Shown here in pieces: positions 27,636-57,555 of a stretch of DNA of 64,000 nucleotides. The stretch is from Candidatus Angelobacter sp. Its GTDB lineage: Bacteria > Acidobacteriota > Terriglobia > Terriglobales > Acidobacteriaceae. Under the pieces are notes generated by a model. The model was not told the DNA's origin. It searched no databases and saw only the letters and a program-made list of their open reading frames with translations. The stretch is taken from positions 11,554-75,553 of the forward strand of contig DATEHN010000108.1 in the NCBI GenBank assembly GCA_035279585.1, written 5' to 3'. Both the position numbers and the translations under genes were made by a program. Every line of letters begins with the position of its first letter. The first letter of the stretch is position 1.

Positions 27636-30368
27636 ATGCTCGGTCGTTCCTGCAGGGCCGTTGTTGCGAAGCACTGTTCCCTCGGCATTTTCATTTTGGC
27701 TTGCGCTCTAAGCCAGGCAAAAGCACAGAACATTCCTAATCCTTGCCCGAATGCGCAGCCAATCCCCACGGAGTTGCGCCTGCCGCCCAACCTGCCGACC
27801 GGTGAGCCAGTAGCTTTTGAGAAACAGGTGCTGGCGTATCTAAGCACGCTCAACTATCGCAAGCTCGGCTGGTGTGAAGACAAGTGGGTGCGCGATACAG
27901 GCCCTTATATGAATGGGAAAGACGCAATCGTGCATCCGCCGGTGCGCATCTTCTATTCGCCTGAAGTCTCCAAGTGGCTGCTCGGTGACCGTCAGGGCGA
28001 GATTCCGGACGGTGCGGTCATCATCAAGGAGCAATTTGGTCCTGCTCCGGCTGCGCGCTTTGCAAATATTCCGCCGGACAAGCTGGGATGCTCAAACGAC
28101 TGGACCTTCATGATCAAGAATTCAGCCGCATCCCGCGACGGCTGGTTCTGGGGCGAGGTCTGGAACAGTGATCAATTTCCCATGAATTTTTCTGATCCGT
28201 TCCAGTATCCCAATGCCGGATATGGGCTCTACTGCCTGCGCTGCCATTCGTCGGCGGAGAAAGAACATACTTTCTCGACGCTGAACAACATCAAGAACGC
28301 GCCGGGATGGCCGCTGCAATACCGGGTTGACGATTCCTGGATGACGATCAAGGCCGATCCTCCAGGCGCCTGTGGCCATGGCAAGAGCGGCGCTGATCCG
28401 ACGGCCAATGAAGGTTTTCCCCAGCACGCACAGAATGCGCTGCTGGCAACCGAACATGTTCATCCTCTGGCAAAGCTGCTGGCAGCACCTCCCGTTCTGC
28501 AAAGGATGCCGCCGGAGCCGCTGGACAACTTTGTGCAGAAGTATCCCAAATCACTCGATCCGCTTACGAGCCCACAATTCGTCACCTCAGCGCAGTGTCT
28601 GGGATGCCATGGCGGTCTTGGCAATACCGGATTTGGACCCAGCATGGTCATTCTTCCGGACATGAATGTCTCGCCTTATGGTGAGTGGCGCTGGTCGCCC
28701 ATGGGGCTTGCTGGACGCGACCCGGTTTTCTATTCGCAACTGGATAGCGAGCTTGCTTTCCTGAAAAGCCAGCCGAAAACACAGCAGAACGTAGTGGATA
28801 CGTGCATGAGCTGCCACGGAGTCATGGGCAAAAGGTCTTTTGCGGCGGAGCATCCAACGGAAAATTTCAAGGTGGATTTTGTCTATGACACCGATCAATC
28901 TTCTGACGCCTTCCGCTATGGAGGCCTCTCACGCGATGGCATCAGTTGCATGGCGTGCCACCAGATGGCAGCGCCCAAAGACGGCCGCCTGAGCTATTTT
29001 CTGCAAAACAAGATCAACGGCCAATTTGATCTCACGCCGAACGACCAACTCAACGGGCCCTTCAAAGACGCGGAGATCACGACTTATCCCATGGACACAG
29101 CGATGGGAGTGAAGCCAAAATTTAATTCCTATATTCAGTCGCCGCAGATGTGTGGAAGCTGCCACACGATTGTCCTTCCGATTGTGGACAGCCCGAAGCC
29201 CGGAGAAACAGAGGTAGAACAGGCGACCTATCCGGAGTGGCTGAACAGCCAGTATCGCAATGAATATGGATCGGTGGGCACCACGCCCAAGACGTGCCAG
29301 GAATGCCACATGCCCACCGGCTACGTCGATCAGAAACAGAAAATCGATGTAACCCAGATCAAGACGCGCATAGCTACTGTGCAGGACCTTACGCTCCCGC
29401 AAACCGAACACCTGGCAACGCCGGAGCAAATCGACGTCCGCTACCGCGATGAAGGCTATCGCCGCCACGAATTGCTGGGAGCCAATGGGTTCCTTCAGGA
29501 GATGTTCCTGCTGCCGATCAACGATAGCGGAAACAACACGGTTCTTGGCGTGCGAACGAAAGACTACATGACCGGTTTCACCACCGACCTGAACAAAGCA
29601 GTGGACAACGTGGTGAAACAGGCGCAGAGCATTACGGCAACAGTTGGGATCTATAGCCTCCACGCGCAAGGAAATAAGCTTACAGTTGATGTAATTGTTA
29701 ACAACTTGGCTGGACATCGCTTTCCCAGCGGAGTTGGATTCCGGCGCGCCCTCCTTGAATTTCGGGCGATGGCTAACGGGCAGACCTTCTTTACCTCTGG
29801 AACCACCAACAGCATGGGACAGATCACAGACTCCAACGGCAAGGTGTTGCCCACGGAATCATTCGCGGGGGGAAAATATCAGCCTCATTTCAACCAGAAA
29901 AACCCCATCACCTCTTCTGACCAGGTGCAGATCTATGAGGAGCTCACCGAGGATGCGAACCATCAAATTACAACCAGCTTCACGCGGCGCGATCATGAAA
30001 TCAAAGACAATCGGCTGCTGCCCGCAGGGTGGTCTTTCACCGGTCCGCCCGACCTGAAGATTCCGGAGTTCTTTCTGGAAGCTACGCGTCCGAAGGGAGA
30101 TGCAGCAAATGATCCGGTATACCTTGCCGGCAAAGGACAGTCGATTGTGCGCTATGAAATTGCCATTCCGCCCAACCTGCAGAACCAGCCTGTAACCGTA
30201 AGAGTGTCACTCTATCTGCAAACTCTGCCGCCGTACTTCCTGGCGGACCGTTACCAGACGGCAACACCGGCAACCGGCCGGCTGAAATATTTAACAGGTT
30301 CCCTGGGAACGCTCAAGGACACGGAGTTGGCGAACTGGAAGTTGCTGGTGGCAACAGCAACGAAATAG
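27636..30368 (+). CDS. Secreted hexaheme c-type cytochrome family protein (910 aa)
   Basis: Signal peptide, then six CxxCH motifs read directly from the translation: CLRCH, CLGCH, CMSCH, CMACH, CGSCH, CQECH. Confidence 0.8.
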   Translation: MLGRSCRAVVAKHCSLGIFILACALSQAKAQNIPNPCPNAQPIPTELRLPPNLPTGEPVAFEKQVLAYLSTLNYRKLGWCEDKWVRDTGPYMNGKDAIVHPPVRIFYSPEVSKWLLGDRQGEIPDGAVIIKEQFGPAPAARFANIPPDKLGCSNDWTFMIKNSAASRDGWFWGEVWNSDQFPMNFSDPFQYPNAGYGLYCLRCHSSAEKEHTFSTLNNIKNAPGWPLQYRVDDSWMTIKADPPGACGHGKSGADPTANEGFPQHAQNALLATEHVHPLAKLLAAPPVLQRMPPEPLDNFVQKYPKSLDPLTSPQFVTSAQCLGCHGGLGNTGFGPSMVILPDMNVSPYGEWRWSPMGLAGRDPVFYSQLDSELAFLKSQPKTQQNVVDTCMSCHGVMGKRSFAAEHPTENFKVDFVYDTDQSSDAFRYGGLSRDGISCMACHQMAAPKDGRLSYFLQNKINGQFDLTPNDQLNGPFKDAEITTYPMDTAMGVKPKFNSYIQSPQMCGSCHTIVLPIVDSPKPGETEVEQATYPEWLNSQYRNEYGSVGTTPKTCQECHMPTGYVDQKQKIDVTQIKTRIATVQDLTLPQTEHLATPEQIDVRYRDEGYRRHELLGANGFLQEMFLLPINDSGNNTVLGVRTKDYMTGFTTDLNKAVDNVVKQAQSITATVGIYSLHAQGNKLTVDVIVNNLAGHRFPSGVGFRRALLEFRAMANGQTFFTSGTTNSMGQITDSNGKVLPTESFAGGKYQPHFNQKNPITSSDQVQIYEELTEDANHQITTSFTRRDHEIKDNRLLPAGWSFTGPPDLKIPEFFLEATRPKGDAANDPVYLAGKGQSIVRYEIAIPPNLQNQPVTVRVSLYLQTLPPYFLADRYQTATPATGRLKYLTGSLGTLKDTELANWKLLVATATK

Positions 30369-30641: not shown

Positions 30642-30677
30642 CGTCCGAAAATGGACACGGAAGTCCATAATTGGACA
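30642..30677 (+). promoter_or_regulatory. Tandem palindromic sites (candidate enhancer/UAS for the NtrC-type regulator)
   Basis: CGTCCGAAAATGGACA (30642-30657) and AGTCCATAATTGGACA (30662-30677) sit 20 bp centre to centre. The same TGTCCA-N4-TGGACA motif recurs at 36284-36320. Confidence 0.45.
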
Positions 30678-30739: not shown

Positions 30740-30755
30740 TGGCTCTAGGAATGCA
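30740..30755 (+). promoter_or_regulatory. Candidate sigma54 (-24/-12) promoter upstream of the ADOP permease operon
   Basis: TGGCTC-TAGGA-ATGCA has GG and GC at the exact consensus spacing of TGGCAC-N5-TTGCW. It lies ~130 nt upstream of ATG 30885. Confidence 0.45.
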
Positions 30756-30884: not shown

Positions 30885-33326
30885 ATGTCAACACTCTTTC
30901 AAGACTTCTCTTACTGCATTCGTTCTCTGAGGAAAACACCGGGATTCACATTCGTGTCCGTGGCCACCTTGGCGTTTGCTATCGCCGCTAACATAGTGGT
31001 TTTCAGCATTCTCGATGCGATAGCCCTACAGCCACCACCTTATCGCAATGCCGGCCGCATTTCGGTGCTTCGCTGGTCTGATCGTAAGCTTCAACCCCAA
31101 GCAGAGGTTTCGGCCGCCGTTTTCTTTATGTTGCAGAAACATGCCCAATCTTTTGCAACAGTCGCTGCATCATATCCGCAAGACGTGGGTATAAACCTTG
31201 CCGGATCGGGTGTTCCACGTTATGTCAAAGCCCTACGCGTGTCGCAGAGCTATTTCGAAACGCTCGGCGTAGAACCGATCCTCGGACGCTCCTTTTTGCC
31301 AGAAGAAGATCGGGCCGGCTCTCCGGGAACGGTTATCCTCAGTTATCGATTGTGGGAAACCGGTTTCAATCGGGAGCCTGCCATTCTCGGAGAGCAACTT
31401 AGGATCAATGGCGCCCAATTCTCGGTTATCGGTGTGATGCCTTCCGGATTTTATTCGTATCCCAATGCCGATGTTTGGGTTCCTCTACAACTCAATGACG
31501 CAAATGCCGATCCAGGTAGTGACTACTTAGTACTTGCTTCTTTGAAAGACACTGTGGTTCCCTCCCAGGCGGAACAGGAACTGTCGACACTTTCTCGTAA
31601 TTATCCTATGTCTTACCTTCCTGGCATGACAGCAGGAACGGCACAACTCAGCCTCGAAGATTTGCAGAAATTCCGTACTGCCAGGGTTCGCAGACAACTC
31701 ACTTTATTGTTCTTTGCAGTTGCCACAGTGCTTCTGGTCACTTGCACCAATGTAACTGTATTGCTTCTGGTGCGCGGACTTGCCCGAACACAAGAAATGG
31801 CGCTGCGAGCTGCTCTAGGCTCGTCAAAATGGAGGTTGGTCCAAATTGTTTTGACCGAAAGCGCGCTCGTTGCCGCATGCGGAGGGATCCTCGGGATTGC
31901 TTTGGGCAAGGAGCTGTTGCAGTTGGCTGTATCAATTCTGCCCCATCCTTTGTTGGAAGGCGCAAGAATTGACATGAACCGACAATCATTGCTTTTCGGT
32001 CTAGCGCTTTCAGCTTTAACCCTTGTCGTCCTCGGGTTCCTGCCTGCCATTAAATTGGACCTGAAGAGCATTACCGCCAGCTTGAGGCCGGCGAACCGGG
32101 GTATAACAGCCGGCGTTGGCCAGACCCGGCTGGCTCAACTCCTGGTAACGACGGAAGCAGCGCTGACGGTTGTTCTTCTTGGGTTCGGACTACTTCTATT
32201 GCAGAGCTTTATAAATCTGTGTTCGGTGAGTCCTGGCTTCAATCCGACGTCTGTATCCGTTATCCAGGTATCGCTTGCCGGTGCACGGTATCAAACCACA
32301 GCAGCCACATGTCGTCTGGTAGATTCGGTTGTCGATCAACTTGCGAGAACGGCAGGGGTCGAAACCGTAGGAACCAGCAATGGCCTGCCACTCGAAACCG
32401 GCCTGAATCTGCCTGTCTATCCAATGGATTCACCCCGCAATATCGACCACGCGGTCCAATATCGAATGGTCAAAGGCAGTTATTTCAAAGCCTTGCGCAT
32501 CCAGCTGTTATCTGGGCGATTGTTTTCCCAGCAAGACGGCGCAAAGGGGCAGCCCGTTGCAATCATCAATGAAGTACTGGCCCGTCGCTGGTGGCCGAAC
32601 GAGAGCGCGATTGGTCATTACCTCCATGCCGGCGAGGAATACGGTCCGGAGTTCAACGATCATCCACGCCAGGTCATCGGCGTTGTTGCCAACGTGCATG
32701 AACTAGGGTTGAGGTACGATTCTCCACCCACAGTCTTTGTGCCTGATGACCAGGTATCGGACAGCCTGACTGCGTTTACGAACAAGCTGTTTTTACTTTC
32801 CATCCTCGTTCGAACCAAGCAGGATCTGGAGATGTCCGAACAAATCAAGTCCGTCCTCGCCTCTGCTGACCCCGATCTTCCAATCGCATCTTCACGTCCC
32901 ATGACAGTCGTGATGAACGGATCTCTTGCTCGTCCACGCTTCTATACCCAGATTGCGGGGCTCTTCGCTGTTTTCGCATTGCTTCTGACAGCGATCGGGC
33001 TGTATGGGTTACTCAGCTATCAAGTACAGCTCAGGATGCCAGAACTCGGTGTCCGAATTGCCCTTGGAGCGACCCGGCCGCAGATAGTTTGGCTTATCAT
33101 CAGACAAGGCATACGTCTTTCCGCAACGGCTCTTTTCTTAGGGCTCATCGGTTCGATTTTTGTAAGCCGGGCTCTGAGTGGGATGCTTTATAATACCGAC
33201 CATGTCTTCTTACGGTTATTGATTGGGGAGGGTGCATTACTTGGGTTCGTTACGATAATGGTTACTTCCCTCGCTGCTGCTCGCATTTCCGCTATCGAAC
33301 CATTGACGGTCCTGCGCAGCCAGTAA
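30885..33326 (+). CDS. ADOP-family (MacB/FtsX-like duplicated) ABC transporter permease
   Basis: The N-terminus MSTLFQDFSYCIRSLRKTPGFTFVSVATLAFAIAANI is typical of acidobacterial duplicated orphan permeases. It has two MacB-periplasmic-core plus FtsX 4-TM halves and no adjacent ATPase gene. The ORF track starts at GTG 30828. Confidence 0.85.
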   Translation: MSTLFQDFSYCIRSLRKTPGFTFVSVATLAFAIAANIVVFSILDAIALQPPPYRNAGRISVLRWSDRKLQPQAEVSAAVFFMLQKHAQSFATVAASYPQDVGINLAGSGVPRYVKALRVSQSYFETLGVEPILGRSFLPEEDRAGSPGTVILSYRLWETGFNREPAILGEQLRINGAQFSVIGVMPSGFYSYPNADVWVPLQLNDANADPGSDYLVLASLKDTVVPSQAEQELSTLSRNYPMSYLPGMTAGTAQLSLEDLQKFRTARVRRQLTLLFFAVATVLLVTCTNVTVLLLVRGLARTQEMALRAALGSSKWRLVQIVLTESALVAACGGILGIALGKELLQLAVSILPHPLLEGARIDMNRQSLLFGLALSALTLVVLGFLPAIKLDLKSITASLRPANRGITAGVGQTRLAQLLVTTEAALTVVLLGFGLLLLQSFINLCSVSPGFNPTSVSVIQVSLAGARYQTTAATCRLVDSVVDQLARTAGVETVGTSNGLPLETGLNLPVYPMDSPRNIDHAVQYRMVKGSYFKALRIQLLSGRLFSQQDGAKGQPVAIINEVLARRWWPNESAIGHYLHAGEEYGPEFNDHPRQVIGVVANVHELGLRYDSPPTVFVPDDQVSDSLTAFTNKLFLLSILVRTKQDLEMSEQIKSVLASADPDLPIASSRPMTVVMNGSLARPRFYTQIAGLFAVFALLLTAIGLYGLLSYQVQLRMPELGVRIALGATRPQIVWLIIRQGIRLSATALFLGLIGSIFVSRALSGMLYNTDHVFLRLLIGEGALLGFVTIMVTSLAAARISAIEPLTVLRSQ

Positions 33327-33344: not shown

Positions 33345-34802
33345 ATGCTGCGGGGAATTATTGAGAAGCCTGGGCACCCTTGGCTCAGTTCTGCTCATAT
33401 GCGAAATTTCGAGAATCAATACCGCATTCTGGCTGCCGATGATCAACCCGCCGTGCTTGAAGCCCTGAAGATGCTGCTCCGGTCGGAAGGCTTTGAAGTA
33501 GAAACGGCCCGTTCACCCCAGGTCGCTCTGGAAGCAGTAAAAACGCGTGAATTCGATACTCTGATCCTGGACCTCAACTATGCCCGCGATACCACTTCGG
33601 GGAAGGAAGGCATTGAGCTTCTTGAAAGCATTCGTGAAGTGGATAACCAGGTACCGATCATCGTGATGACGGCCTGGGGCACGATTGATCTCGCTGTAGA
33701 GGCGGTACGCAGAGGTGCGCGCGATTTTGTCCAAAAGCCCTGGAACGACGACCACTTGATAGCTACGGTCCGAACCACTGCGGAACTGTACCGTGCCCTG
33801 CGCCAGGGACAACGCCTTGAAGCAGAGAACCGGCTATTTCGCAGCTATGGTGCGCCAAGTTTTGTCGCTACAGCTCCTGCCATGCGCCCCATAGTAGAAG
33901 CCATTTCGCAGATTGGCCCATCGGACGCCAATGTTCTTATTACGGGCGAACACGGCGCCGGGAAAGAGGTGGTGGCTTTGATGTTACATGCGGTTTCACG
34001 TCGCGCAGACAAACCGCTCATTGCCGTCAACACCGGGGGCTTGCCGGAGGGCACTTTTGAAAGCGAATTGTTTGGTCACGTCAGAGGGGCCTTTACCGAT
34101 GCCAAGGCGGACCGGATCGGGCGATTTGAAATGGCTGATCAGGGAACATTGTTCTTGGATGAAATTGCCAATGTTCCGCTGAGGCAGCAGGCCAAACTCC
34201 TGCGCGTTTTGGAGAGTGGGCAGATGGAGCGTGTAGGGTCCTCACGCACACGCCAGGTGAATGTGCGTGCTCTCTCTGCGACAAATGCGGACCTTCAAGC
34301 CAAATGCAATGCGGGTGAATTTCGTGAAGACCTTCTGTTTCGGCTTAATACTGTTGAAATTCACATTCCATCGCTGCGGGAGCGCCCTGAGGATATTCCG
34401 CCTCTGGCTGCACATTTCTTGAATAAACACGCCAGCCGTTATCATAAGGCGCTTCAGGGACTCAGCCCTGAAGCAGTGGAGAAACTCGTAACCTTTCCCT
34501 GGCCGGGAAATGTACGGCAGCTGGACCACGTTATTGAACGCGCCACGATCATGTGCAAAGGAAATTTCATTCAACCCGGCGACCTGGGGCTTCAAGTTTC
34601 CTCCGAACATCATCCAGCAGACCTGAGTGAGATGAGCCTCGAACAGGCGGAAAAGCTCCTGATCAAGAAGGCTTTAGCGCGTTATAAAGGGAGTGTGAAG
34701 CTGGCGGCTGAAGCGCTGGGTCTCAGCCGCGGCACATTTTATCGCCGGATGGAGAAGCACGGGCTACATGAATCCACGTCCGCCAGGAAACAGCAGCAAT
34801 AA
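33345..34802 (+). CDS. Sigma54-dependent response regulator (NtrC family bEBP: REC-AAA+-Fis HTH)
   Basis: REC domain (RILAADDQP...LILDLNY). AAA+ domain with Walker A GEHGAGKE, the loop ELFGHVRGAFTDA (GAFTGA variant), Walker B LFLDEI and R-finger region. C-terminal HTH AAEALGLSRGTFYRRM. ATG 33399 is an alternative start. Confidence 0.9.
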   Translation: MLRGIIEKPGHPWLSSAHMRNFENQYRILAADDQPAVLEALKMLLRSEGFEVETARSPQVALEAVKTREFDTLILDLNYARDTTSGKEGIELLESIREVDNQVPIIVMTAWGTIDLAVEAVRRGARDFVQKPWNDDHLIATVRTTAELYRALRQGQRLEAENRLFRSYGAPSFVATAPAMRPIVEAISQIGPSDANVLITGEHGAGKEVVALMLHAVSRRADKPLIAVNTGGLPEGTFESELFGHVRGAFTDAKADRIGRFEMADQGTLFLDEIANVPLRQQAKLLRVLESGQMERVGSSRTRQVNVRALSATNADLQAKCNAGEFREDLLFRLNTVEIHIPSLRERPEDIPPLAAHFLNKHASRYHKALQGLSPEAVEKLVTFPWPGNVRQLDHVIERATIMCKGNFIQPGDLGLQVSSEHHPADLSEMSLEQAEKLLIKKALARYKGSVKLAAEALGLSRGTFYRRMEKHGLHESTSARKQQQ

Positions 34803-36189
34803 AGGAATGGGACGGCTATCGCTGTCCTTTGAGCGCCGCCTGTTTCTTTCCGTACTGTTCGCCGGACTTCCTGGAGTCGGACTCGCCCTCTTTCTGCTTT
34901 GGTCAGGCCAGTATTCCCTCTACCATAAGACCCTGGGCACCGTTGTTCTGGCTCTTCTGTGGTCCTTATTGGCGGTGTCCGCTTGTGGGAGCGTCACCAG
35001 CGCATTGCGGGTCTTGTCAAATGTAATCGAATCTCTCAAGGAGGAAGACTTTTCCTTTCGGGCTGCGCATGCAATTAAGGGTGATGCACTGGGCGATCTA
35101 GCAATCGAGGTCAATAAACTTGCTCAAGCGCTCAACGAAGAGCGCCTGGCATCATTGGAAACCGTGAATCTATTTCGCCGCATCATGTCGGAAGCTGGAG
35201 CGGTGATGTTTGCCTTTTCCGATGACCGCTGCGTGCGCCTCATGAATCGAGATGCAGCCCGCTTGTTGGGCCATAGCGAAGAACAGCTGCTGCATCGCAG
35301 CGCGCAAGAGCTGGGTATTACTGATCTCATCGAGGGCCCACCCGCGGAAACAATAACCCGCATGTTCGGTGGTCTTGAACGTCGATGGATCGTTCGTCGC
35401 TCTCATTTCCGGTTCCATGGCATTCAACATACGTTAATCGTGATGTCGGAAGCATCCGAGGCGCTTCGCGCGGAAGAGAGATCAGCTTGGCAAAAACTTA
35501 TCCGCGTTCTCGGCCATGAGATTAATAATTCGCTTGCACCAATTAAGTCGATTGCATATACGTTGGCCCGAACGTCGGCAAGCGAAAATTTGCCGGCACC
35601 GTTGAAAGTTAACCTGAAACAAGGGTTGGAAGTCATTGCTGATCGTTCCGATTCCCTGAACCGATTTCTTCAGGCCTATACCCAAATCGCAAAACTTCCT
35701 CCGCCGTCACCCATGGTAAGTTCGTTGCCGGCCATTGTCTCCAATGTTGTTGCCTTGGAGCACAGACTTCCCATTGCCACTCTTTCGGATGGCTGTCTCG
35801 ATGTTCTTGTTGATCGTGACCAACTGGAGCACGCTATCATCAATTTGGTTCGTAACGCTGTCGAGGCGGTACTGATGAACTCAGAAGTGGTGCAGGATGA
35901 CGCCGTGACAATATCATGGCATTCACATGCAGGCGATCTCGAACTATGGATACGGGACCGCGGCATTGGCCTTCCCGAAACTCAGAACCTATTTGTTCCT
36001 TTTTACACCACTAAGCAGAATGGGACCGGCATTGGCCTTGTGCTGAGCCGCCAAATCATTGAAGCGCATAATGGCCGTCTCTCCATCCAAAACCGCCAGG
36101 ATGGGCCCGGTTGTGAAGTTAGGCTTTTCCTGCCTCGCTGTGTAGTCGCTCGCAAGCCGCTGGGACGTATGCCATCCACCGGAAAATGA
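34768..36189 (+). CDS. Sensor histidine kinase (2 TM, HAMP/PAS-like, HisKA, HATPase_c)
   Basis: H-box LGHEINNSLAPIKS, N-box LVRNAVEA, G-boxes DRGIGLP and GTGIGLVLSRQI. It overlaps or abuts the regulator gene (alternative start ATG 34807). Confidence 0.9.
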   Translation: MNPRPPGNSSNKGMGRLSLSFERRLFLSVLFAGLPGVGLALFLLWSGQYSLYHKTLGTVVLALLWSLLAVSACGSVTSALRVLSNVIESLKEEDFSFRAAHAIKGDALGDLAIEVNKLAQALNEERLASLETVNLFRRIMSEAGAVMFAFSDDRCVRLMNRDAARLLGHSEEQLLHRSAQELGITDLIEGPPAETITRMFGGLERRWIVRRSHFRFHGIQHTLIVMSEASEALRAEERSAWQKLIRVLGHEINNSLAPIKSIAYTLARTSASENLPAPLKVNLKQGLEVIADRSDSLNRFLQAYTQIAKLPPPSPMVSSLPAIVSNVVALEHRLPIATLSDGCLDVLVDRDQLEHAIINLVRNAVEAVLMNSEVVQDDAVTISWHSHAGDLELWIRDRGIGLPETQNLFVPFYTTKQNGTGIGLVLSRQIIEAHNGRLSIQNRQDGPGCEVRLFLPRCVVARKPLGRMPSTGK

Positions 36190-36283
36190 ATCTTTGCTTC
36201 CGTGCTTTAATGTAATCCGAGCCTCCAGAGGTTTTTATCCCCGTGAATACATCGGGACATCCTGCACCACACTTGCGCTCTCA

Positions 36284-36320
36284 TGTCCGCTACTGGATTC
36301 GATTTGTCCATAACTGGACA
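36284..36320 (+). promoter_or_regulatory. Tandem palindromic sites (candidate enhancer/UAS) upstream of the lanthipeptide operon
   Basis: TGTCCGCTACTGGATT (36284-36299) and the perfect palindrome TGTCCATAACTGGACA (36305-36320) sit 21 bp centre to centre. A third, weaker site TGTCCAAGTTTGGCGG lies at 36416-36431. Confidence 0.5.
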
Positions 36321-36474
36321 CGCAAACCGTAATTTTTCCTGAGATTGATCTAGGGACCGGAAATCAATTCAACACATCTATTGTTTTTCCATATACGAGA
36401 AGCACATACATCTCATGTCCAAGTTTGGCGGCTGCGAGTATTAAGGCAGTTTAGTACCATAGCGGCAATAACTA

Positions 36475-36490
36475 TGGCACAACACTTGCT
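36475..36490 (+). promoter_or_regulatory. Sigma54 (-24/-12) promoter
   Basis: TGGCAC-AACAC-TTGCT matches TGGCAC-N5-TTGCW at every specified position. It ends 48 nt upstream of the precursor-peptide ATG. Confidence 0.65.
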
Positions 36491-36537
36491 TACCTAGGAT
36501 GTACCCGATTTTAAATCTAAAGCTATGGAGAAAGTCG

Positions 36538-36678
36538 ATGCCCCAAGTTCTTAACTTTCAACGCCTGGGATTTAATGGATCACGGATTGATGATATTGAA
36601 CCATTGTTTCTTATCAGCAGTACCAGCAGCATCTGCTCAACCGTTCCAACAACCGGCAGCGGGATCCCAGCCAACTAG
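36538..36678 (+). CDS. Class III lanthipeptide precursor peptide (46 aa; not in ORF track)
   Basis: ATG 36538 is preceded by GGAGAAAGTCG. The product is MPQVLNFQRLGFNGSRIDDIEPLFLISSTSSICSTVPTTGSGIPAN. It has a leader motif VLNFQ (compare the ILELQ-type class III leader motif). The Ser/Thr-rich core contains S-x-x-S-x-x-C. It lies 130 nt upstream of the LanKC gene. Confidence 0.7.
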   Translation: MPQVLNFQRLGFNGSRIDDIEPLFLISSTSSICSTVPTTGSGIPAN

Positions 36679-36686
36679 GCCGATAT

Positions 36687-36730
36687 GCGGGGCTGCTCAC
36701 GGTTCGAAAACCAGCCGCCCCGCCATTTTT
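36687..36730 (+). terminator. Hairpin plus T-run between precursor and synthetase genes (candidate attenuator / partial terminator)
   Basis: GCGGGGCTG (36687-36695) pairs with CAGCCGCCCCGC (36712-36723) with one bulge, followed by CATTTTT (T5 at 36726-36730). Confidence 0.4.
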
Positions 36731-36808
36731 CCCAGGAAACCCAGTTTTCAATCTACTTTGACTATATAGAAAGCTAGTCGAGTTTTATGTTGTAACTGGA
36801 AGGAAATC

Positions 36809-39547
36809 ATGCGCAGCAGACCGACCCTCTTGTACGAACTGCTCGATCGAGATTACTACGAGACATTCGATGCCTACGTGCCGGAGAAGGCGGATTTTTA
36901 TCATGCTGTCGATTCCAGGCTTCCCGCGGGATGGGAAATTCAGCGCCAAAATGTCTGGTTCCAATGCGGATCACCCGACAATGTGGTGCCGCAACAGGGC
37001 TGGAAAATCCATGTCTCCGCAACCTGCAAGGATGCCCGTGGCACTCTCGAGCGTGTCGTCACCGTGCTGTTTCGGAGAAAGGACACGGCCTTCAAATTTG
37101 CGCTCGACCGGGTTTCGCTTGCTCTCCTCAACAGCAAAGGCTGGACGCGTGGCGGAGCGGGCAAATTCATTACCATTTATCCGAAAGATATTCAATGTTT
37201 CTTGGAGCTGCTGGAAGAACTCCATAGCGTAACGCGCGGTCAAGCCGGCCCCTATATCTTGTCTGACTATCGATATGGCGCCGACGGCGTCGTCTTCTAT
37301 CGTTATGGTGGAATGCGCGCACGTTACAGTCTCAACGTAAGAGGAGAGCTCGTCCCCGTGCTGCTCGCCCCTGACGGTACAGAAACTCCGGACCGCCGCC
37401 TTCCCTTTCCCGTGACGCCCCCTTGGGCTGACGTTCCATTTCCTGCAGTCTCCGGTGAGGATACTCAATCAGGGGAGCTGATGCTCCTGCAAAACGGCAG
37501 ATACGAGATCCAAAATGTGATGGCGTTTTCCAATGCCGGCGGAGTGTATCGTGCTATCGACCGGCACACTGGGCTCCATGTAGTCCTAAAGGAGGCCCGT
37601 CCGCATGTTGGTCCTGCTAACTGTGGTATTGATGCAATAGAGCTATTGAAAAAAGAACACCGCTTGCTGACGATCCTGAGCGATAGCGGCATTGCACCCA
37701 GGCCCAATGACCTTTTTCAGGAATGGGAACACTGGTTCTTGGTCGAGGAATTCATCGAGGGAGTGACTCTGGCGAATCATTCCTTACAGCATAATATTCT
37801 GCTGCGCACCAGACCATGCTCTGACGATCTACAGCAGTGGTTAACTACGTTTTCGAGTGTCGCCTTGAATCTCATCAAGACCATTGAAATCTTGCATGAC
37901 CATGGAATTGTATTCGGCGACCTTTCCCCCAATAACCTGATCGTCAAACCAGGCACCAATGACTTGTGCGTGATTGATTTCGAAGCAGCGCAGCAGATAG
38001 GCATAGACGCGCCCCTCGTGCTCTACACTCCCGGCTTCGCCTCTAAGCAGCGAATGTCCAGCGGAGCTGCCACTTTTGCCGAAGATTATTATGCCTTGGG
38101 GGCCGTCCTGAGTTCATATCTTCTGCCATTGAATGGTCTGTTCCAGTTCCGTCCTGAAGCCAAAACGGATGTTCTCCGTTCCATTGCAATTGACCTTCAT
38201 CTGCCGGCCAATATTGTTGATGCCATTCTGCGGCTCCTCAGCTCGGAGCCTGCCGAGCGCCCAACACCGAAAATGCTCACGCAACTCTTCACCACTCCAT
38301 GTGAACCCATGAATGTTCCTTCCAACGCGGCGCGCATCGACTACGGCGCATTGATAGGAGATATTGAGGGCCATATCCTCAATTCAGCAACTTACAAGCG
38401 CCATGACAGGCTGTTTCCCGCCGATGCGTCACTGTTCGCGACAAATCCTCTAAGCTTGTCCCATGGGGCGGCCGGGGTCGCCTACGCGTTGCATCGGATT
38501 TCTGATCAGTTTCCCGAGCGGGCCGTTGACTGGATCCTTCAGCATAAGATTACGAACAACGCGTATCCGCCTGGCTTATACATTGGGTCCTCGGGAATAG
38601 CTTGGTGTCTGCTTGAACTTGGCCTTCAAAAGGAAGCCGAGAAGATATTTCAGCTCACATTGTCCAGCCCTCTTCGATATAAGGCCGCAGACTTGTTTTA
38701 TGGCATGGCCGGCAACGGATTAACCGCATTGCGTTTCTTCATGGATACTCAAAATGAGTCATACCTGGATTGTGCAATCGGCGCTGGTGAAGAGCTGCTA
38801 CGAACAGGCTGCAGAAGCGGCAACGGGCTTTACTGGCCGGATGGTTCGGAAATACGGCTAGGCATGGCACATGGCGCGAGCGGAATAGCACTCTTTTTGC
38901 TTTATCTCTTCATGATAACTGAGGATGCTCGTTTCCTCGCCGCAGGGCAGGGCGCTCTGAATTTCGATTTAAGTTTCGCGCGTGAGACCAGGGATGAAGG
39001 ACTTTCCTGGGCACATTCCGATCATGTTGCATCTCCCCTCTATCCATACTGGCGCTTTGGGAGCGCCGGCGTGGGCGCCGTTGTATTGCGCTACTACAGG
39101 TTGCTTAGAGACCCCCAGTATCGATCCCTCCTCGAACAGATTTTCATCGAGGTGGATCGGAAGTATGCCGTTTTAACAGGGCAGTTCATGGGATTGTCCG
39201 GGCTTGGCGAGTTCTCGCTTGATCTTTACGAGTATTTTGGCGAGGAGAGATTTTTGAACAGCGCCAGAAAGGCTGCGGAGGGAATCATGCTCTTTCGCGT
39301 CGACCGCGCTGGCATCGCATTTCCGGGCGATCAACTTCTACGCCTTTCCTGCGACTATGGGACGGGAAGTGCCGGTGTTGCTTTGTTCTTGAACCGTCTC
39401 GCAGGCCGCCAGGGCAACAATTTCATGTTGGATTCTCTTTTCCATCTTCCCGCCGGCCTGCCCGAAAATACCCTGTCACCTTCGCAGCAACATTCCATTG
39501 CTCTTTATGATGTCATGCATCATCAATACATCCATTCCGGATGGTAG
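36809..39547 (+). CDS. Class III lanthipeptide synthetase LanKC (lyase - Ser/Thr kinase - zinc-ligand-less LanC-like cyclase)
   Basis: The RBS GGAAGGA precedes the ATG. N-terminal lyase motif QGWKIHVSA. Kinase motifs VVLKEARPHVG, GIVFGDLSPNNLIV and VIDFEAA. The C-terminal LanC-like repeats carry GMAHGASGIALFL, but YWRFGSAG replaces WCxG and SCDYGTGSAG replaces CHG, so the Zn ligand set is incomplete. That points to class III rather than class IV. Confidence 0.85.
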   Translation: MRSRPTLLYELLDRDYYETFDAYVPEKADFYHAVDSRLPAGWEIQRQNVWFQCGSPDNVVPQQGWKIHVSATCKDARGTLERVVTVLFRRKDTAFKFALDRVSLALLNSKGWTRGGAGKFITIYPKDIQCFLELLEELHSVTRGQAGPYILSDYRYGADGVVFYRYGGMRARYSLNVRGELVPVLLAPDGTETPDRRLPFPVTPPWADVPFPAVSGEDTQSGELMLLQNGRYEIQNVMAFSNAGGVYRAIDRHTGLHVVLKEARPHVGPANCGIDAIELLKKEHRLLTILSDSGIAPRPNDLFQEWEHWFLVEEFIEGVTLANHSLQHNILLRTRPCSDDLQQWLTTFSSVALNLIKTIEILHDHGIVFGDLSPNNLIVKPGTNDLCVIDFEAAQQIGIDAPLVLYTPGFASKQRMSSGAATFAEDYYALGAVLSSYLLPLNGLFQFRPEAKTDVLRSIAIDLHLPANIVDAILRLLSSEPAERPTPKMLTQLFTTPCEPMNVPSNAARIDYGALIGDIEGHILNSATYKRHDRLFPADASLFATNPLSLSHGAAGVAYALHRISDQFPERAVDWILQHKITNNAYPPGLYIGSSGIAWCLLELGLQKEAEKIFQLTLSSPLRYKAADLFYGMAGNGLTALRFFMDTQNESYLDCAIGAGEELLRTGCRSGNGLYWPDGSEIRLGMAHGASGIALFLLYLFMITEDARFLAAGQGALNFDLSFARETRDEGLSWAHSDHVASPLYPYWRFGSAGVGAVVLRYYRLLRDPQYRSLLEQIFIEVDRKYAVLTGQFMGLSGLGEFSLDLYEYFGEERFLNSARKAAEGIMLFRVDRAGIAFPGDQLLRLSCDYGTGSAGVALFLNRLAGRQGNNFMLDSLFHLPAGLPENTLSPSQQHSIALYDVMHHQYIHSGW

Positions 39548-40080: not shown

Positions 40081-40419
<339 letters not shown>

Positions 40420-41152: not shown

Positions 41153-42865
41153 TCATTTTGGCTGCAGAACGCAAAGGCCATTTGAATTACCATTGCTGTA
41201 CAGTGGCGGCAGAGTGGCCGGCGGGAGTCCGGCCTTTTCGATAGGATCAGACCCGCGATACGGCGCCTTGGTTCCACCATAACGTGTACTGAGGTAATCG
41301 TAGACATGCGGCAGTGTTTTGACCAGGTTCTCAGACCGCCTGCGAAGCTCGTCGAAGGCTGCAAAAACCTGAGCTGTGGGCAAATGATCCAGGATCGCCA
41401 GTCCGCGCTTTGGCGCTGCGCCCAGTCCAATCAACATCGAACTGTAGGAATATGCGGTGAAACCGTGGAAATTAGGATTGATGGTTCGGTCGGTTGGCAG
41501 ACGTTCTTTCCACAACTGCAACCGTTCTTTCAGGCCATCGGGTACGACCAGATCGTGCTTTGTGGCTTTCCAGAAGTCGGTATCATCCCTGGTCCCAATT
41601 ACATAATGCATGGTCAGAAATTCGCGAACGCCATCAATGCAATCCGCAACCGCCTTGTTGTAGCTCTTGACGCTGGCCTCGTCGTAGCCGTGTCTGGGAA
41701 AATAATTCACAAGTTGCTCGATCCCGTGGTGAATAAAGAAAATGCCCGTTGACTCCAGGGGTTCTACGAAACCGCTGGCAAGCCCGATTGCCACACAGTT
41801 CTTCACCCATGATCTTGCCGACCTGCCGACTCTCATCTTGATATGCGATGCGCGGCACCCATCGGCCTTCTTGCCTAGATGGTTACGGAACTCCTGCTCC
41901 GCAGCTTCAGGGCTGGTAAAAGCGCTCGAATATACGTACCCTGTGCCGGTTCGATGATAAAGGGGGATCTTCCAGACCCAGCCTGAACTCAAGGCTGTGG
42001 CGGTGGTGTAAGGCTCCATAATATGGTCCGCATGATCGCCGGACACCTGCATGGCAATGGCGCTGTCACAAGGCAGCGACTCGTTGAACGAAATGAAGGG
42101 CTCCTTGAGCGCCCGATTAATCAGCAATCCGCGGAACCCGGTACAGTCAATGAACAGATCACCTTCAATTTCGCCATGGTCTTTGGTCACAATCGACAGA
42201 ATTCGGCCGTCCTCCCCGAGTCTTACGTCTACAACATCATCGAGTACTTGCCGCACACCCTGCTTTTGCGCATAGCCGGTCAAGTATCTCGCGAGTAAAG
42301 AGGCGTCGAAATGATAGGCATAGGGATACTGGATCCTGAGGTCATCCACAAACAATGATTCGTTGTTTGTCTCTGACCCGTTGATGTATCCATCCACCTT
42401 CCGATCAAAAGAATAGCCGTTGAAGTAACGGGGCGACCTTTGCGCATCACAGATTGCCGGGATAGAAAAACATGCATAATCGAACGGCGCGCCCAGTTGA
42501 TCTCTCAGTTTGAGCCACCATTCAATGGTGCTCCATCCCTGCACCAGATCGAATTTCTGAAATGGGTGGTAAAAGTGGCGCCGTTCGCGGTTCCAATTTT
42601 CAAACCGGATCGCGAGTTTGTAGCCGGCGTGGCACTCCGGCATCCAGTCTTCCTCGCGTAAGCCGAGGAACTCGAAAAACAAGTGGATGTAGCTGAAAGT
42701 TGCTTCGCCCACGCCGATGCTGTGGATGTCAGGCGACTCTACGAGTGAAATATCCACCTTGCGGCCGAAGGCTTTGCCGAGGAAAGATGCGGTCATCCAA
42801 CCAGACGAGCCTCCTCCCACGATGACGACTTTGAATTTTCTTTCACTTCCATTGCTGATATCCAT
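41153..42865 (-). CDS. Flavin-dependent (tryptophan-halogenase family) halogenase
   Basis: ATG 42865 is preceded by AAGGATGGAAG. FAD motif VVIVGGGSSGWMTA, then SIGVGEAT. The catalytic-Lys context is AGYKLAIRF and the WxWxIP motif reads GWVWKIPL. Confidence 0.85.
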   Translation of the reverse strand: MDISNGSERKFKVVIVGGGSSGWMTASFLGKAFGRKVDISLVESPDIHSIGVGEATFSYIHLFFEFLGLREEDWMPECHAGYKLAIRFENWNRERRHFYHPFQKFDLVQGWSTIEWWLKLRDQLGAPFDYACFSIPAICDAQRSPRYFNGYSFDRKVDGYINGSETNNESLFVDDLRIQYPYAYHFDASLLARYLTGYAQKQGVRQVLDDVVDVRLGEDGRILSIVTKDHGEIEGDLFIDCTGFRGLLINRALKEPFISFNESLPCDSAIAMQVSGDHADHIMEPYTTATALSSGWVWKIPLYHRTGTGYVYSSAFTSPEAAEQEFRNHLGKKADGCRASHIKMRVGRSARSWVKNCVAIGLASGFVEPLESTGIFFIHHGIEQLVNYFPRHGYDEASVKSYNKAVADCIDGVREFLTMHYVIGTRDDTDFWKATKHDLVVPDGLKERLQLWKERLPTDRTINPNFHGFTAYSYSSMLIGLGAAPKRGLAILDHLPTAQVFAAFDELRRRSENLVKTLPHVYDYLSTRYGGTKAPYRGSDPIEKAGLPPATLPPLYSNGNSNGLCVLQPK

Positions 42866-42994
42866 AGAATTCTTCCATCCTTTTATAAACACAAGTTGAA
42901 ATATCTGGCCGGCGTTGAAAACGCCGTGCACTATCCGGTTTGCCAGGATCAAGCGGACTTCTGGCAGGGAAATTTTGTGGAGGTGGCTTCGGGT

Positions 42995-44650: not shown

Positions 44651-46243
44651 TTATTGCAGGAGGATTTCTTTCTCACCAAAAAGCCGTTCCGCAATGACGC
44701 CGCGATCCCGGCAGTACTCGATTAAACGATTCGACTCGACAATCGGTCTGGACTCATCGGTGTACTTGATGCTCATGATGTAGTTCAGCCACGGTTCCTG
44801 GCCCATGGCATAGACGTAAGCTTCCCGGCAGTTGTATTGGTCCACAATGCTTTTCGCCTGCTCAAAATTCGATCCAGAGAGGCGGCGCGATTCATCCAGC
44901 GAGCGCTCGAGCCGTTGAGTCAACAGGGGACCATATAACCAGCTTAGCGGCGCTCCGTCACATTCCATTCCAAGAAAAACGGCATCTATGTCTCCGGTTT
45001 CACGGTGCAAATGCGAGTAGAGCCGCGGCTCGACGTTGCACGAATCAGCTGCGAACAAAAGCGAGCGCCTTCCCGCCTTGACCAGATATGCAAGCTTACT
45101 CGCTATATCAAGGTCGGAGTGTTCTCCCAGAAAGGGAAGTCCCACGATGTCCCCATTGGGGGTGGCGATTTGCTGCATCTGGTCAAGCGATATGACCTGT
45201 TTAAAGCCCGCGTTTCTCAACATGAGTTCCAGCGATGGGTCCTGCAAAGAACCGATTGAATTTCTTGGCACCACAACACATTTCACCTTGTGCCGGATCT
45301 GCAGAAGCGTTTCAAAAAGGACATGGTCCTGGTGATTGTGCGTGATCAGGACGTAGTCAATTGAGTCTGGCAGGTCGCAGTAGGTATAGCGAGAAATATC
45401 GCTCTCATACGTGTAACTCAGCACCGGATCGAACATCATACTGACGCCGCCTGTTTCAATCAGAATGCAGGCGTGCCCGAAATAGCGCCAGCGCACCCCC
45501 TGGCCGGTATAAGGCTCATACCTCGGCGGTGGTTCCTCGGTCAGGAATGACCGCAACAGCTTTTCGTCTTCACCCCCCTTGATGCCAAGCATCTCTTTGA
45601 TCTGGCCAAACGGCTTAGGCGATATTTTTGCCTGAAAGAGCGCGTCGACAGACTCATGGTCAAAGGGAAGACGGACATGCAGCAGGCCATCACCTTCCAG
45701 ACGTGGTGTGCTGAGAACGAACGGACGATCGTCGCCACCAGTGAGCGACAGCATCAGACTCTGGGCTGAGCGGTCGTAATACCTGGAACGGTATAACAAT
45801 GGCTCAAGCAATTTGAAGGATGGCTGGTTGTTCAGGTCATAAACGAGTTCTACATAACCTTTCAGTATGTCAGGAACGTCCTTATATAGTGGTTGAAGAG
45901 ATTGACCTTTCGCTTTGCTCCGCAGACATGTGTCGAGGTTCTGTATGGCTTGCGAGAGCTCAACCAGATGCGAGCGCTCACACCGGATGCGGTCCCGCAG
46001 GGCCCGAATCTCGGCCACTCTCTCCCCTCCATAATCAATGAAAGGCCCACCCGACATTTTTGGATTCTTGACAGCTTTTGCATGCACTTGTGGGGCGCTG
46101 ATGTAGGACTCCATTATTTTCATATGCCGCTCAGTTAGATTGCGCGAGGCAGTGGCCGGCGGAATCAGATGCGCCCACGCATACCATTGATCAATGAGCG
46201 GCTCTACTTGAATGTTCTTTTTTAAATAAAGGAGTTGCTCCAT
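44651..46243 (-). CDS. MBL-fold protein with ~250-aa N-terminal domain; candidate CmlA-like diiron amino-acid beta-hydroxylase
   Basis: 530 aa, RBS GGAGA. The MBL core FGHACILIE...VLITHNHQDH lies in the C-terminal half. Size and two-domain layout resemble the NRPS-associated CmlA family. Confidence 0.5.
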   Translation of the reverse strand: MEQLLYLKKNIQVEPLIDQWYAWAHLIPPATASRNLTERHMKIMESYISAPQVHAKAVKNPKMSGGPFIDYGGERVAEIRALRDRIRCERSHLVELSQAIQNLDTCLRSKAKGQSLQPLYKDVPDILKGYVELVYDLNNQPSFKLLEPLLYRSRYYDRSAQSLMLSLTGGDDRPFVLSTPRLEGDGLLHVRLPFDHESVDALFQAKISPKPFGQIKEMLGIKGGEDEKLLRSFLTEEPPPRYEPYTGQGVRWRYFGHACILIETGGVSMMFDPVLSYTYESDISRYTYCDLPDSIDYVLITHNHQDHVLFETLLQIRHKVKCVVVPRNSIGSLQDPSLELMLRNAGFKQVISLDQMQQIATPNGDIVGLPFLGEHSDLDIASKLAYLVKAGRRSLLFAADSCNVEPRLYSHLHRETGDIDAVFLGMECDGAPLSWLYGPLLTQRLERSLDESRRLSGSNFEQAKSIVDQYNCREAYVYAMGQEPWLNYIMSIKYTDESRPIVESNRLIEYCRDRGVIAERLFGEKEILLQ

Positions 46244-56488: not shown

Positions 56489-56511
56489 AAATCTGTCCTC
56501 TTGATTCTTTC

Positions 56512-57555
56512 TCAACCGGTAACACTCAAGCTGGCAAAACCTGCCACTTCGGCATAGGTGCGCTGACCCCATTCCATCCATGACCATCCCGGCCCGGCTT
56601 CGAGAGGGCTCTCCACCTGGCGCGGGGCGGTCGGCAGCACCGATAAATTCAAATTGTTCTGAGCGAGATACTCGTCGTTATAGATCGTATCGACATAGCG
56701 GTGGCCGTCGTCCGGGAAAATGCACACCACTTTGGCCTTCTTGTTCTTTCTCGCCCACTCTGAGGCAATTAACCAGGCGGCGCCGCTAGTGCCGCCGCAG
56801 AACAGAGATGTCTGCCGGTGCAGCTCGCGCGTGGCCTTGTAGGCCTCGGCTGCTGTGACCCAGTGGACCTCGTCGAAAATGGTGTGGTCCAGGTTTTCAG
56901 GCAGCAGGCTGTTGCCGAGCCCCCGCAACTGCCTCGGGCCTTCGGGCTGGCCAAACAACACGCTGCCGAACGTATCAACGCCCACTGCTTTCAAATCGGG
57001 GTAAAGCATGCGTAAATAGCTCGTTGTGCCACACATCGACCCTCCTGATCCCACTGTGCCTACCAGGCAATCGATCTGCCCGAGGGATTCCACCAGTTGT
57101 CCTGCAAATTGACCATAGGCTCCTGGATTACAGGGATTGTGGTACTGGCTAACCCACCAGGTATTCTTCTCTTCCGCTCGGATCTTTTCCAGGCAATCGA
57201 GACGAGCCCTCTGATAGCCGCCTGCAGCCGCCGGACCGCTCACAATCTCTACGCGGGCTCCAAGGTCTTCCAACCGCTTTCGTAACGCGCCTTCGCAGGC
57301 GTAATCCGATACGATCACGAGCCGGTATTTCCTGAGATTGCAGATGATCGCCAGCCCCAAAGCCATATTTCCAGATGAGCTTTCAACAATCAGAGACTGG
57401 GATTGGATCCAGCCTTCTTCCTGTGCGCGCCGTATGCAGAACTCTGCGGGAAAGAGTTTCATGAACGGAAAAACTGCAGCATACAGATTGTGCTCAAGTG
57501 GAACAAGCCGTGGCTGATAGCAGCTGAGAATTGCGGATTCTTTTTGATCACTCAT
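56512..57555 (-). CDS. Fold-type II PLP enzyme of the cysteine synthase family, SbnA-like
   Basis: Lys context FMKLFPA, ESSSGNMALGLA, phosphate loop GTVGSGGSMCG, GGTSGAA and C-terminal IFPDDGHRYVDTIY. From memory, the overall layout parallels SbnA-type beta-replacement enzymes. Confidence 0.7.
   Translation of the reverse strand: MSDQKESAILSCYQPRLVPLEHNLYAAVFPFMKLFPAEFCIRRAQEEGWIQSQSLIVESSSGNMALGLAIICNLRKYRLVIVSDYACEGALRKRLEDLGARVEIVSGPAAAGGYQRARLDCLEKIRAEEKNTWWVSQYHNPCNPGAYGQFAGQLVESLGQIDCLVGTVGSGGSMCGTTSYLRMLYPDLKAVGVDTFGSVLFGQPEGPRQLRGLGNSLLPENLDHTIFDEVHWVTAAEAYKATRELHRQTSLFCGGTSGAAWLIASEWARKNKKAKVVCIFPDDGHRYVDTIYNDEYLAQNNLNLSVLPTAPRQVESPLEAGPGWSWMEWGQRTYAEVAGFASLSVTG

Follow-up and report, generated by a model that had tools for sequence, protein, structure and literature searches.

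The stretch of DNA analyzed here, referred to below as the window, comprises 64,000 nucleotides from a soil acidobacterium, Candidatus Angelobacter sp. (GenBank assembly GCA_035279585.1, contig DATEHN010000108.1, positions 11,554 to 75,553 of the forward strand), and it contains at 36538-36678, on the + strand, a short open reading frame (ORF) that runs from ATG to TAG and whose direct translation is the 46-amino acid product MPQVLNFQRLGFNGSRIDDIEPLFLISSTSSICSTVPTTGSGIPAN. This frame, designated lanA, is read as the gene of a class III lanthipeptide precursor, and it lies 130 nt 5' of, and on the same strand as, lanKC (36809-39547, +), a gene with RamC_N, Pkinase and LANC_like domains (Pfam; NCBIfam NF038151) for a class III lanthipeptide synthetase of 912 amino acids that combines lyase, kinase and cyclase. 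The sequence of the frame, its 47 homologous ORFs at 47 orthologous loci, the alignment of their products and a synonymous codon bias together make it highly probable that 36538-36678 is the class III lanthipeptide structural gene of Ca. Angelobacter, with a sigma-54 promoter, with an operon for an ADOP-family permease and a two-component system alongside, and with the mechanism proposed below.

The start codon of lanA is preceded by a Shine-Dalgarno sequence, GGAG, at 36527-36530 (+), with a 7-nt spacer to ATG 36538, and an AGGAG-type site is equally distant from the start in the orthologous loci. Codons 4-10 (36547-36567, +) encode VLNFQRL, a leader recognition helix motif of the form (I/V)L-x-LQ-x-L, and codons 27-33 (36616-36636, +) encode the ring-forming Sx2Sx2C motif SSTSSIC, in which S27-x-x-S30-x-x-C33 includes the only cysteine of the peptide; ten of the final 22 residues are Ser or Thr. 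These details had been reported in an earlier first-pass annotation of the sequence, and the frame, its GGAG, the Ser/Thr count and the single Cys all read as it had described them. LxLQ is the class III leader motif (PMC7268733), and the ILELQ form of the leader motif is essential for processing by LabKC (PMC8341899); the window peptide has V4 L5 N6 F7 Q8 in this place, where F7 for the usual Leu is a conservative hydrophobic change. The spacing of S27, S30 and C33 is that of Sx2Sx2-5C, the class III motif for (methyl)lanthionine or labionin (PMC8341899). The precursor would accordingly be divided into a leader of about residues 1-24 and a core starting at about residue 25, and a tblastn search for further copies of lanA in the window returned only noise, leaving a single copy.

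The longest ORF in the same frame begins at ATG 36499 and has 59 codons for amino acids, and it is because of this length that lanA is missing from an ORF track limited to at least 60 amino acids, as had been supposed. The description of the gene as unannotated is likewise upheld, since the annotation of the source contig leaves the 619 nt from the kinase gene to lanKC without any gene, and the 46-amino acid peptide, used as a query against a collection of 5.8 billion proteins, has no match there. An NCBI protein 100% identical to LanKC already carries the name 'class III lanthionine synthetase LanKC [Candidatus Angelobacter sp.]', and the enzyme is therefore known and annotated, with only the peptide gene missing. 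In a large survey 55% of class III precursors were unannotated and 57% were the sole predicted precursor of their cluster (PMC7268733); a class III precursor that lacks annotation is ordinary, and would be an expected find for anyone running RODEO. A profile of the precursor family recovers 31 database proteins, none of which is named a lanthipeptide and all of whose named members are 'hypothetical protein'. Two relatives of the peptide score 20.1 bits (locus L009, NF038160) and 19.4 bits (locus L001, NF038154) with NCBIfam 'class III lanthipeptide' models, below the respective cut-offs of 27 and 22, and judged by such scores the current curated class III peptide models do not cover the precursor clade. 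The sole Pfam match of the window peptide, to BAALC_N, fell 16.9 bits below its cut-off and was rejected as a low-complexity artefact.

The reality of the gene was evaluated at orthologous LanKC loci drawn from a one-genome-per-species set, from metagenomes and from exact-protein look-ups. A locus was counted as testable if its LanKC was at least 50% identical (Ca. Angelobacter/Terriglobia) and at least about 300 nt of upstream sequence was available, which gave 47 loci; a leader pattern that allowed Met or Arg at the variable position was needed to recover seven of the clade loci. The first-pass annotation had named the absence of a conserved small ORF beside orthologous synthetases as grounds for rejecting the gene, and a small same-strand ORF is present directly upstream of LanKC in all 47, encoding 41 distinct peptides. 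An alignment of 36 of these precursors has six invariant positions, M1, L5, Q8, S27, S30 and C33, and conservation of at least 90% at L7 and L10. The conserved columns correspond to the ring motif and to the leader motif of class III, so that both motif assignments made from the single sequence coincide with what the family has kept, and the lanA ORF is therefore taken to be a genuine precursor gene. Codon differences in eight close pairs (the pair L085/L087 being left out of the totals) amount to 56 synonymous and 37 non-synonymous, which indicates that selection acts on the lanA reading frame. At remoter LanKC loci, in Bryobacteraceae, Ktedonobacteraceae, Luteibacter, Stenotrophomonas and others, the upstream peptides have the form M-x-x-(I/V)L-x-LQ with different core patterns. 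The tail that follows the Cys is 13 residues long in the window peptide and 8-17 residues long across the clade; the long tail to which attention had been drawn is thus present, but it is a trait of the whole clade and not a peculiarity of this peptide.

It might be supposed instead that lanA is open by chance, within an intergenic spacer of 619 nt that holds only regulatory DNA or an RNA for the LanKC gene, as the failure of the gene caller to report it on this contig, and the lack of a match to the peptide in the protein collection or in NCBIfam, would allow. A chance frame does not sit easily with conservation in 47 of 47 loci with invariant functional residues, with substitutions that lean towards the synonymous, or with relatives that are called as genes elsewhere, and an Rfam search of 36100-36900 returned no match at E up to 1. 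The conservation can be said to have effectively refuted this explanation, which is scarcely credible.

The assignment of the enzyme to class III is consistent across several comparisons. LanKC scores 764 bits with the NCBIfam model for class III lanthionine synthetases (NF038151, cut-off 575) and 589.7 bits with the class IV model NF038150 (LanL), and since the latter score is below its cut-off of 650 a class IV assignment was rejected. The best relatives of LanKC among solved structures are class III LanKCs, with ThurKC first (PDB 8sao/8sam, E ~1e-74), and the catalytic signatures of the lyase (QGWKIH) and of the kinase (KEARP, GDLSPNN and IDFE) are intact. The stretches at the ThurKC zinc positions read YWRFGSAG and FMGLSGLGEF, with no Cys or His, in a pairwise alignment that is gapped there; in ThurKC itself S726 and F770/D771 replace zinc ligands (PMC10604976). 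LanKC has a clade-invariant cysteine, C848 (SCDYGTGSAG), away from the canonical zinc-ligand positions, and a histidine that is near-invariant in its clade, H688 (AHGASG), at the position of ThurKC Asp667 and of the catalytic His212 of NisC (PMC10604976). The retained His and the invariant Cys may bear on the cyclisation mechanism. Most of the LanKCs in a 2020 survey were from Actinobacteria and Firmicutes (PMC7268733).

Two ring structures have to be distinguished for the predicted product, because the Sx2Sx(2-5)C motif leads to lanthionine in some class III peptides and to labionin in others (PMC7268733; PMC8341899). Substrates of class III-a/c enzymes carry STxSNxC (PMC13504147) and the product of ThurKC contains labionin (PMC10604976); labionin is slightly favoured over lanthionine here because the Sx2Sx2C spacing of the window peptide is that of STxSNxC and because ThurKC makes labionin. 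A simple lanthionine, formed between C33 and the dehydroalanine (Dha) at position 27 or 30 with no labionin, is given somewhat less than an even chance. The dual outcome of the motif in other class III peptides allows for it, and H688, kept at the canonical LanC acid/base His position where ThurKC differs, could favour protonation of the enolate (PMC10604976); the closest solved enzyme is nevertheless one that makes labionin (PMC10604976) from class III-a substrates of identical spacing (PMC13504147), and both Ser residues of the triad are invariant, as would be expected if both were used.

Transcription of lanA can be considered in terms of a sigma-54-type promoter, TGGCAC-N5-TTGC with the -24 GG and -12 GC (TGGCACAACACTTGC), at 36475-36489 (+). 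This element matches the consensus perfectly and ends 48 nt before ATG 36538; neither strand of the 64 kb has a second exact match. An element that keeps both GG and GC and scores 8/10 or better is present in 43 of the 47 clade loci, where 41-72 nt separate its end from the lanA ATG downstream; the background is 1.5% per 60-nt window, and no such element was found in the scored LanKC loci of other phyla. A generic promoter and terminator scan reported no sigma-70 promoter on the + strand.

The position of the promoter also bears on the choice of start codon. Given the usual distance from -12 to +1 in sigma-54 promoters, transcription from the predicted promoter should start near 36500, which would leave ATG 36499 without a 5' untranslated region; a transcript from about 36500 would therefore begin downstream of ATG 36499 and be translated from ATG 36538. 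ATG 36538 is taken as the start because all 36 aligned relatives open with a Met shortly before the (I/V)L, two residues ahead of it in all cases except one, where the distance is five, and with an AGGAG-type site before the Met. A 59-amino acid protein that starts at ATG 36499 (MYPILNLKLWRKS followed by the 46 residues) and so has a longer leader is very unlikely to be the real product, even though it is the longest in-frame ORF and no stop lies between the two codons: the residues further upstream than the relatives' Met are unconserved, a Shine-Dalgarno sequence is absent before 36499 and present before 36538, and the -12 element ends at 36489, which places the predicted transcript start at or after ATG 36499. 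The relatives' Met, the unconserved upstream residues and the promoter position all favour ATG 36538.

Upstream of the promoter, at 36284-36320 (+), lies a putative enhancer (upstream activator sequence) that consists of a perfect 16-bp palindrome, TGTCCATAACTGGACA, at 36305-36320, of the pattern TGTCCA-N4-TGGACA, and, 21 bp further upstream, of a degenerate copy (36284-36299, TGTCCGCTACTGGATT). When up to two mismatches are allowed, 41 of 44 loci have one or more such palindromes in the 500 nt ahead of lanA (background 2.5%), and tandem palindromes 19-22 bp apart occur in this region in 30 of the 44 (background 0.8%); the conserved tandem arrangement would fit the role of candidate upstream activator sites. 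A second tandem pair, CGTCCGAAAATGGACA and AGTCCATAATTGGACA, 20 bp apart, is found at 30642-30677 (+), upstream of the permease operon, and tandem palindromes upstream of the permease gene are also present in loci L083 and L084. A weak sigma-54-like element, TGGCTC-N5-ATGC, which scores 8/10, lies upstream of the permease at 30740-30754.

Between lanA and lanKC a GC-rich hairpin at 36687-36723 is followed by CAUUUUUCC, and the two together (36687-36732, +) form a putative partial terminator or attenuator. The hairpin has a long bulged stem, a long loop and a T-run two bases past the stem, a form that the strict generic scan, which reported no terminator, misses. The 71-nt stretch 36670-36740 that contains it has a minimum free energy of -26.5 kcal/mol (z = -2.44), and a hairpin directly follows the lanA stop in seven of 11 clade loci, the copy in L003 having a classical T-run.

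The operon that precedes lanA consists of three genes on the + strand. The first (30885-33326) encodes the ADOP-family duplicated MacB/FtsX permease (TIGR03434, 702.7 bits, cut-off 622). The second (33345-34802) encodes an NtrC-type sigma-54-dependent response regulator with REC, AAA+ and HTH_8 domains, which matches Sigma54_activat at E = 4e-61 and has both Walker A (GEHGAGK) and Walker B, together with an ELFGH..GAFTDA loop in which GAFTDA is one residue off GAFTGA. The third (34807-36189), for which the start annotated on the source contig is used, encodes a sensor histidine kinase in which, by domain matches and hydropathy, two N-terminal transmembrane helices joined by a very short loop precede PAS and HATPase domains; the hydropathy peaks are in windows starting at about residues 11-16 and 41-49, with few residues between the helices. 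The permease gene adjoins lanA-lanKC in most clade loci with long enough flanks, either co-directional or divergent, and the response regulator gene is present wherever the flank of a locus extends past the permease. Permease, regulator and kinase thus accompany lanA-lanKC across the clade in two layouts: in layout A, that of the window, the operon is co-directional and the precursors have no conserved C-terminal motif, and in layout B the operon is divergent and the precursors mostly end in F-E/Q-M/L-E/Q/D. Together with the promoter and the palindromes, these genes suggest that a conserved sigma-54 circuit turns lanA on, and a literature search for lanthipeptides under sigma-54 control gave no relevant paper.

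Two further observations concern the genes at the edges of these layouts. A stand-alone LanC-like gene of about 415-430 amino acids follows lanKC in ten layout-B loci (L003, L090, L091, L093, L097, L098, L104, L105, L166 and L167). In the layout-A loci L083-L085 the permease operon is immediately preceded by a NusG-paralogue gene of opposite orientation, a position that is occupied in the window by the gene for a 910-amino acid multihaem cytochrome (27636-30368).

In the mechanism proposed for the system, the phosphorylated response regulator would bind the palindromes and drive sigma-54 RNA polymerase from about 36500. The hairpin would end most transcripts after lanA and let some continue into lanKC, so that the precursor would exceed the enzyme. 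LanKC would bind the N-terminal VLNFQRL helix, phosphorylate Ser and Thr residues of the core and eliminate the phosphate to give Dha and dehydrobutyrine (Dhb), after which C33 would add to Dha30 or Dha27 to form a lanthionine or, with a second Dha, the carbacyclic labionin. The predicted outcome is one small ring system followed by a 13-residue tail of Ser, Thr, Pro and Gly. The leader would be cleaved off by a protease encoded elsewhere, as is usual in class III. A more speculative step is that the permease and the short-loop kinase might sense or export the peptide, which would close an autoinduction or immunity loop.

An extension of this last step would have the product of LanKC act as a signal or autoinducer instead of an antibiotic. 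The mature peptide would then be detected by the short-loop kinase together with the ADOP permease, and these would act back on the sigma-54 promoters that precede lanA and their own genes, as happens with nisin and subtilin. The association of the two-component system and the permease with lanA-lanKC throughout the clade in two layouts, the occurrence of the same palindrome before both lanA and the permease operon, a kinase whose two transmembrane helices have almost no external loop and which therefore probably requires a sensing partner, and the lack of an obvious immunity gene or dedicated exporter ATPase are all consistent with such a role. The argument is, however, entirely inferential, since co-location would fit export or immunity by the permease together with an unrelated regulatory signal equally well, and the sigma-54-like element upstream of the permease is weak; an autoinducing peptide is possible but on balance unlikely. 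More doubtful still is the combined proposition that the locus belongs to an acidobacterial branch of class III not characterised before, whose peptide, with a single Sx2Sx2C ring ahead of a long C-terminal tail, is controlled through an NtrC-type regulator and sigma-54 and is sensed or exported by the ADOP permease and the loop-less kinase in a self-inducing circuit. If it were true, ADOP permeases would gain their first assigned role.

Several observations weigh against the assignment of lanA and its proposed mechanism. The window peptide matches no NCBIfam family at E up to 10, the curated class III peptide models included, and it is the most divergent member of its clade: it has F7 where L7 is otherwise nearly invariant, its Cys is not followed by Pro, and the C-terminal F-E/Q-M/L-E/Q/D motif is missing. 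Many of the orthologous loci come from related soil metagenomes and hence are not independent, and the promoter and palindrome scans used the author's own simple consensus scoring. The hairpin is just moderately better than shuffled sequences by its z-score and is found in seven of the 11 clade loci examined for it rather than in all, and the sigma-54 contact loop of the regulator is GAFTDA instead of the canonical GAFTGA. Finally, the lanA-lanKC cluster contains no protease, no dedicated ATPase and no classical LanT transporter.

Elsewhere in the window, adjacent M16 peptidase genes at 6820-8202 and 8212-9720 (+) encode proteins with hydrophobic, signal-peptide-like N-termini, of which the first has HLFEH (HxxEH) and the second is without it, the pattern of an active/inactive M16B pair. 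In some Firmicutes the leader of a class III lanthipeptide is removed by an M16B pair encoded outside the cluster (PMC8960859), and by analogy this pair, 27 kb from lanA, is a candidate leader peptidase.

On the other side of lanKC the lanthipeptide genes are abutted by a separate biosynthetic cluster of non-ribosomal peptide synthetase (NRPS) type, at 40467-63870 on the minus strand. Its genes encode a HAAS-domain protein, a Trp halogenase (41153-42952), a lyase, a CmlA-like diiron beta-hydroxylase (44651-46243) and an ATP-grasp L-amino-acid ligase, and further a Na/H exchanger, a beta-eliminating lyase, a flavin reductase, a methyltransferase, a type II thioesterase, a class IV aminotransferase, a second ADOP/MacB permease (54035-56587), a PALP enzyme, a GHMP kinase, an ABC transporter and an A-T-C NRPS module (60493-63870) that comes within about 130 bases of the end of the window. 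The minus-strand halogenase and NRPS genes were rejected as parts of the lanthipeptide system because none is found beside orthologous LanKCs, and the downstream SnoaL-like gene was rejected because it is conserved only beside the closest LanKCs (L009, L083, L084 and L086) and is absent in the rest. Between the HAAS-domain and SnoaL-like genes there is a perfect (ACA)14 repeat at 40313-40354, which reads (TGT)14 on the minus strand, and a sigma-54-like element on that strand, TGGCAATAGAATTGC, at 40370-40356 (9/10), has the (TGT)14 repeat just downstream of it.

The present analysis adds a real gene that annotation pipelines miss, and it defines a family of at least 41 distinct precursors that are all either uncalled or named 'hypothetical protein' and are undetected by the curated class III models. 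In the literature searched no paper on a class III lanthipeptide from Acidobacteriota was found. Three things appear distinctive: the phylum, a long tail that is conserved behind a single ring, and the context of sigma-54, enhancer-binding protein and ADOP permease, and literature searches gave no paper on these. The regulatory finding is of greater interest. The conserved promoter, the tandem palindromes and the adjacent enhancer-binding protein together predict that a lanthipeptide is controlled by sigma-54. Since an ADOP permease is constantly paired with the system, there is also a lead, open to testing, to what this large family of permeases may do in soil Acidobacteria.

Among known systems, the closest likeness is to ThurA/ThurKC, the andalusicin system of Bacillus thuringiensis (class III-a), whose enzyme is the best solved-structure match noted above and shares the lyase-kinase-cyclase architecture; as far as the gapped pairwise alignment shows, LanKC probably also resembles it in having no zinc-ligand triad. 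The precursors of class III-a also combine an N-terminal hydrophobic leader helix with STxSNxC, which is an Sx2Sx2C motif (PMC13504147), and in both systems the leader protease is, or is predicted to be, encoded outside the cluster. The two differ in that andalusicin, a Firmicute product, has seven precursor copies, a Thr-rich stretch with 11 dehydrations and an N-methyltransferase, whereas the window has a single precursor with 13 residues beyond the ring, and its lanthipeptide cluster lacks a methyltransferase; the window also has a sigma-54 promoter and an ADOP/two-component operon, and a His in LanKC replaces Asp667 of ThurKC.

The founding class III system, LabA2/LabKC of Actinomadura (labyrinthopeptin), has the leader helix ILELQ, whose hydrophobic residues are essential (PMC8341899), where the window peptide has VLNFQ. 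In both cases a Ser/Ser/Cys motif is the substrate of a LanKC, although its conversion is a prediction here. LabA2, from an actinomycete, contains two Sx2Sx3C motifs and a disulfide, whereas the window peptide has one Sx2Sx2C motif and a single Cys. The lipolanthines (microvionin, MicA/MicKC/MicD) have Sx2Sx2C of equal spacing and a class III LanKC (PMC8341899). Their avionin requires a LanD-type flavoprotein decarboxylase acting on a C-terminal Cys as well as lipid-attachment genes, and a lipolanthine assignment was rejected here, since a scan of 29 larger ORFs in the neighbourhood revealed no LanD-type domain and C33 is followed by 13 further residues.

The regulatory setting invites comparison with systems of other kinds. 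For nisin and subtilin, a two-component system (NisRK, SpaRK) is encoded next to the lanthipeptide genes, lanA has a regulated promoter, and read-through into the biosynthetic genes is kept low by an inverted repeat downstream of lanA; the regulators there are of the OmpR type, the promoters are of the sigma-70 type and the machinery is that of class I, whereas the window has an NtrC-type AAA+ enhancer-binding protein and a -24/-12 promoter. In BceAB-BceRS-type modules an FtsX-family permease with large external domains stands beside a histidine kinase that has two transmembrane helices and is nearly loop-less. The permease beside the short-loop kinase in the window resembles this arrangement as a functional analogy only, and not as membership, for there is no adjacent ABC ATPase, the ADOP permease is duplicated and the regulator is sigma-54-dependent rather than of the OmpR type. 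The regulatory setting leaves the basic picture unchanged: apart from a match to a curated peptide model, all the defining features that sequence can test mark the peptide and its enzyme as a canonical class III pair.

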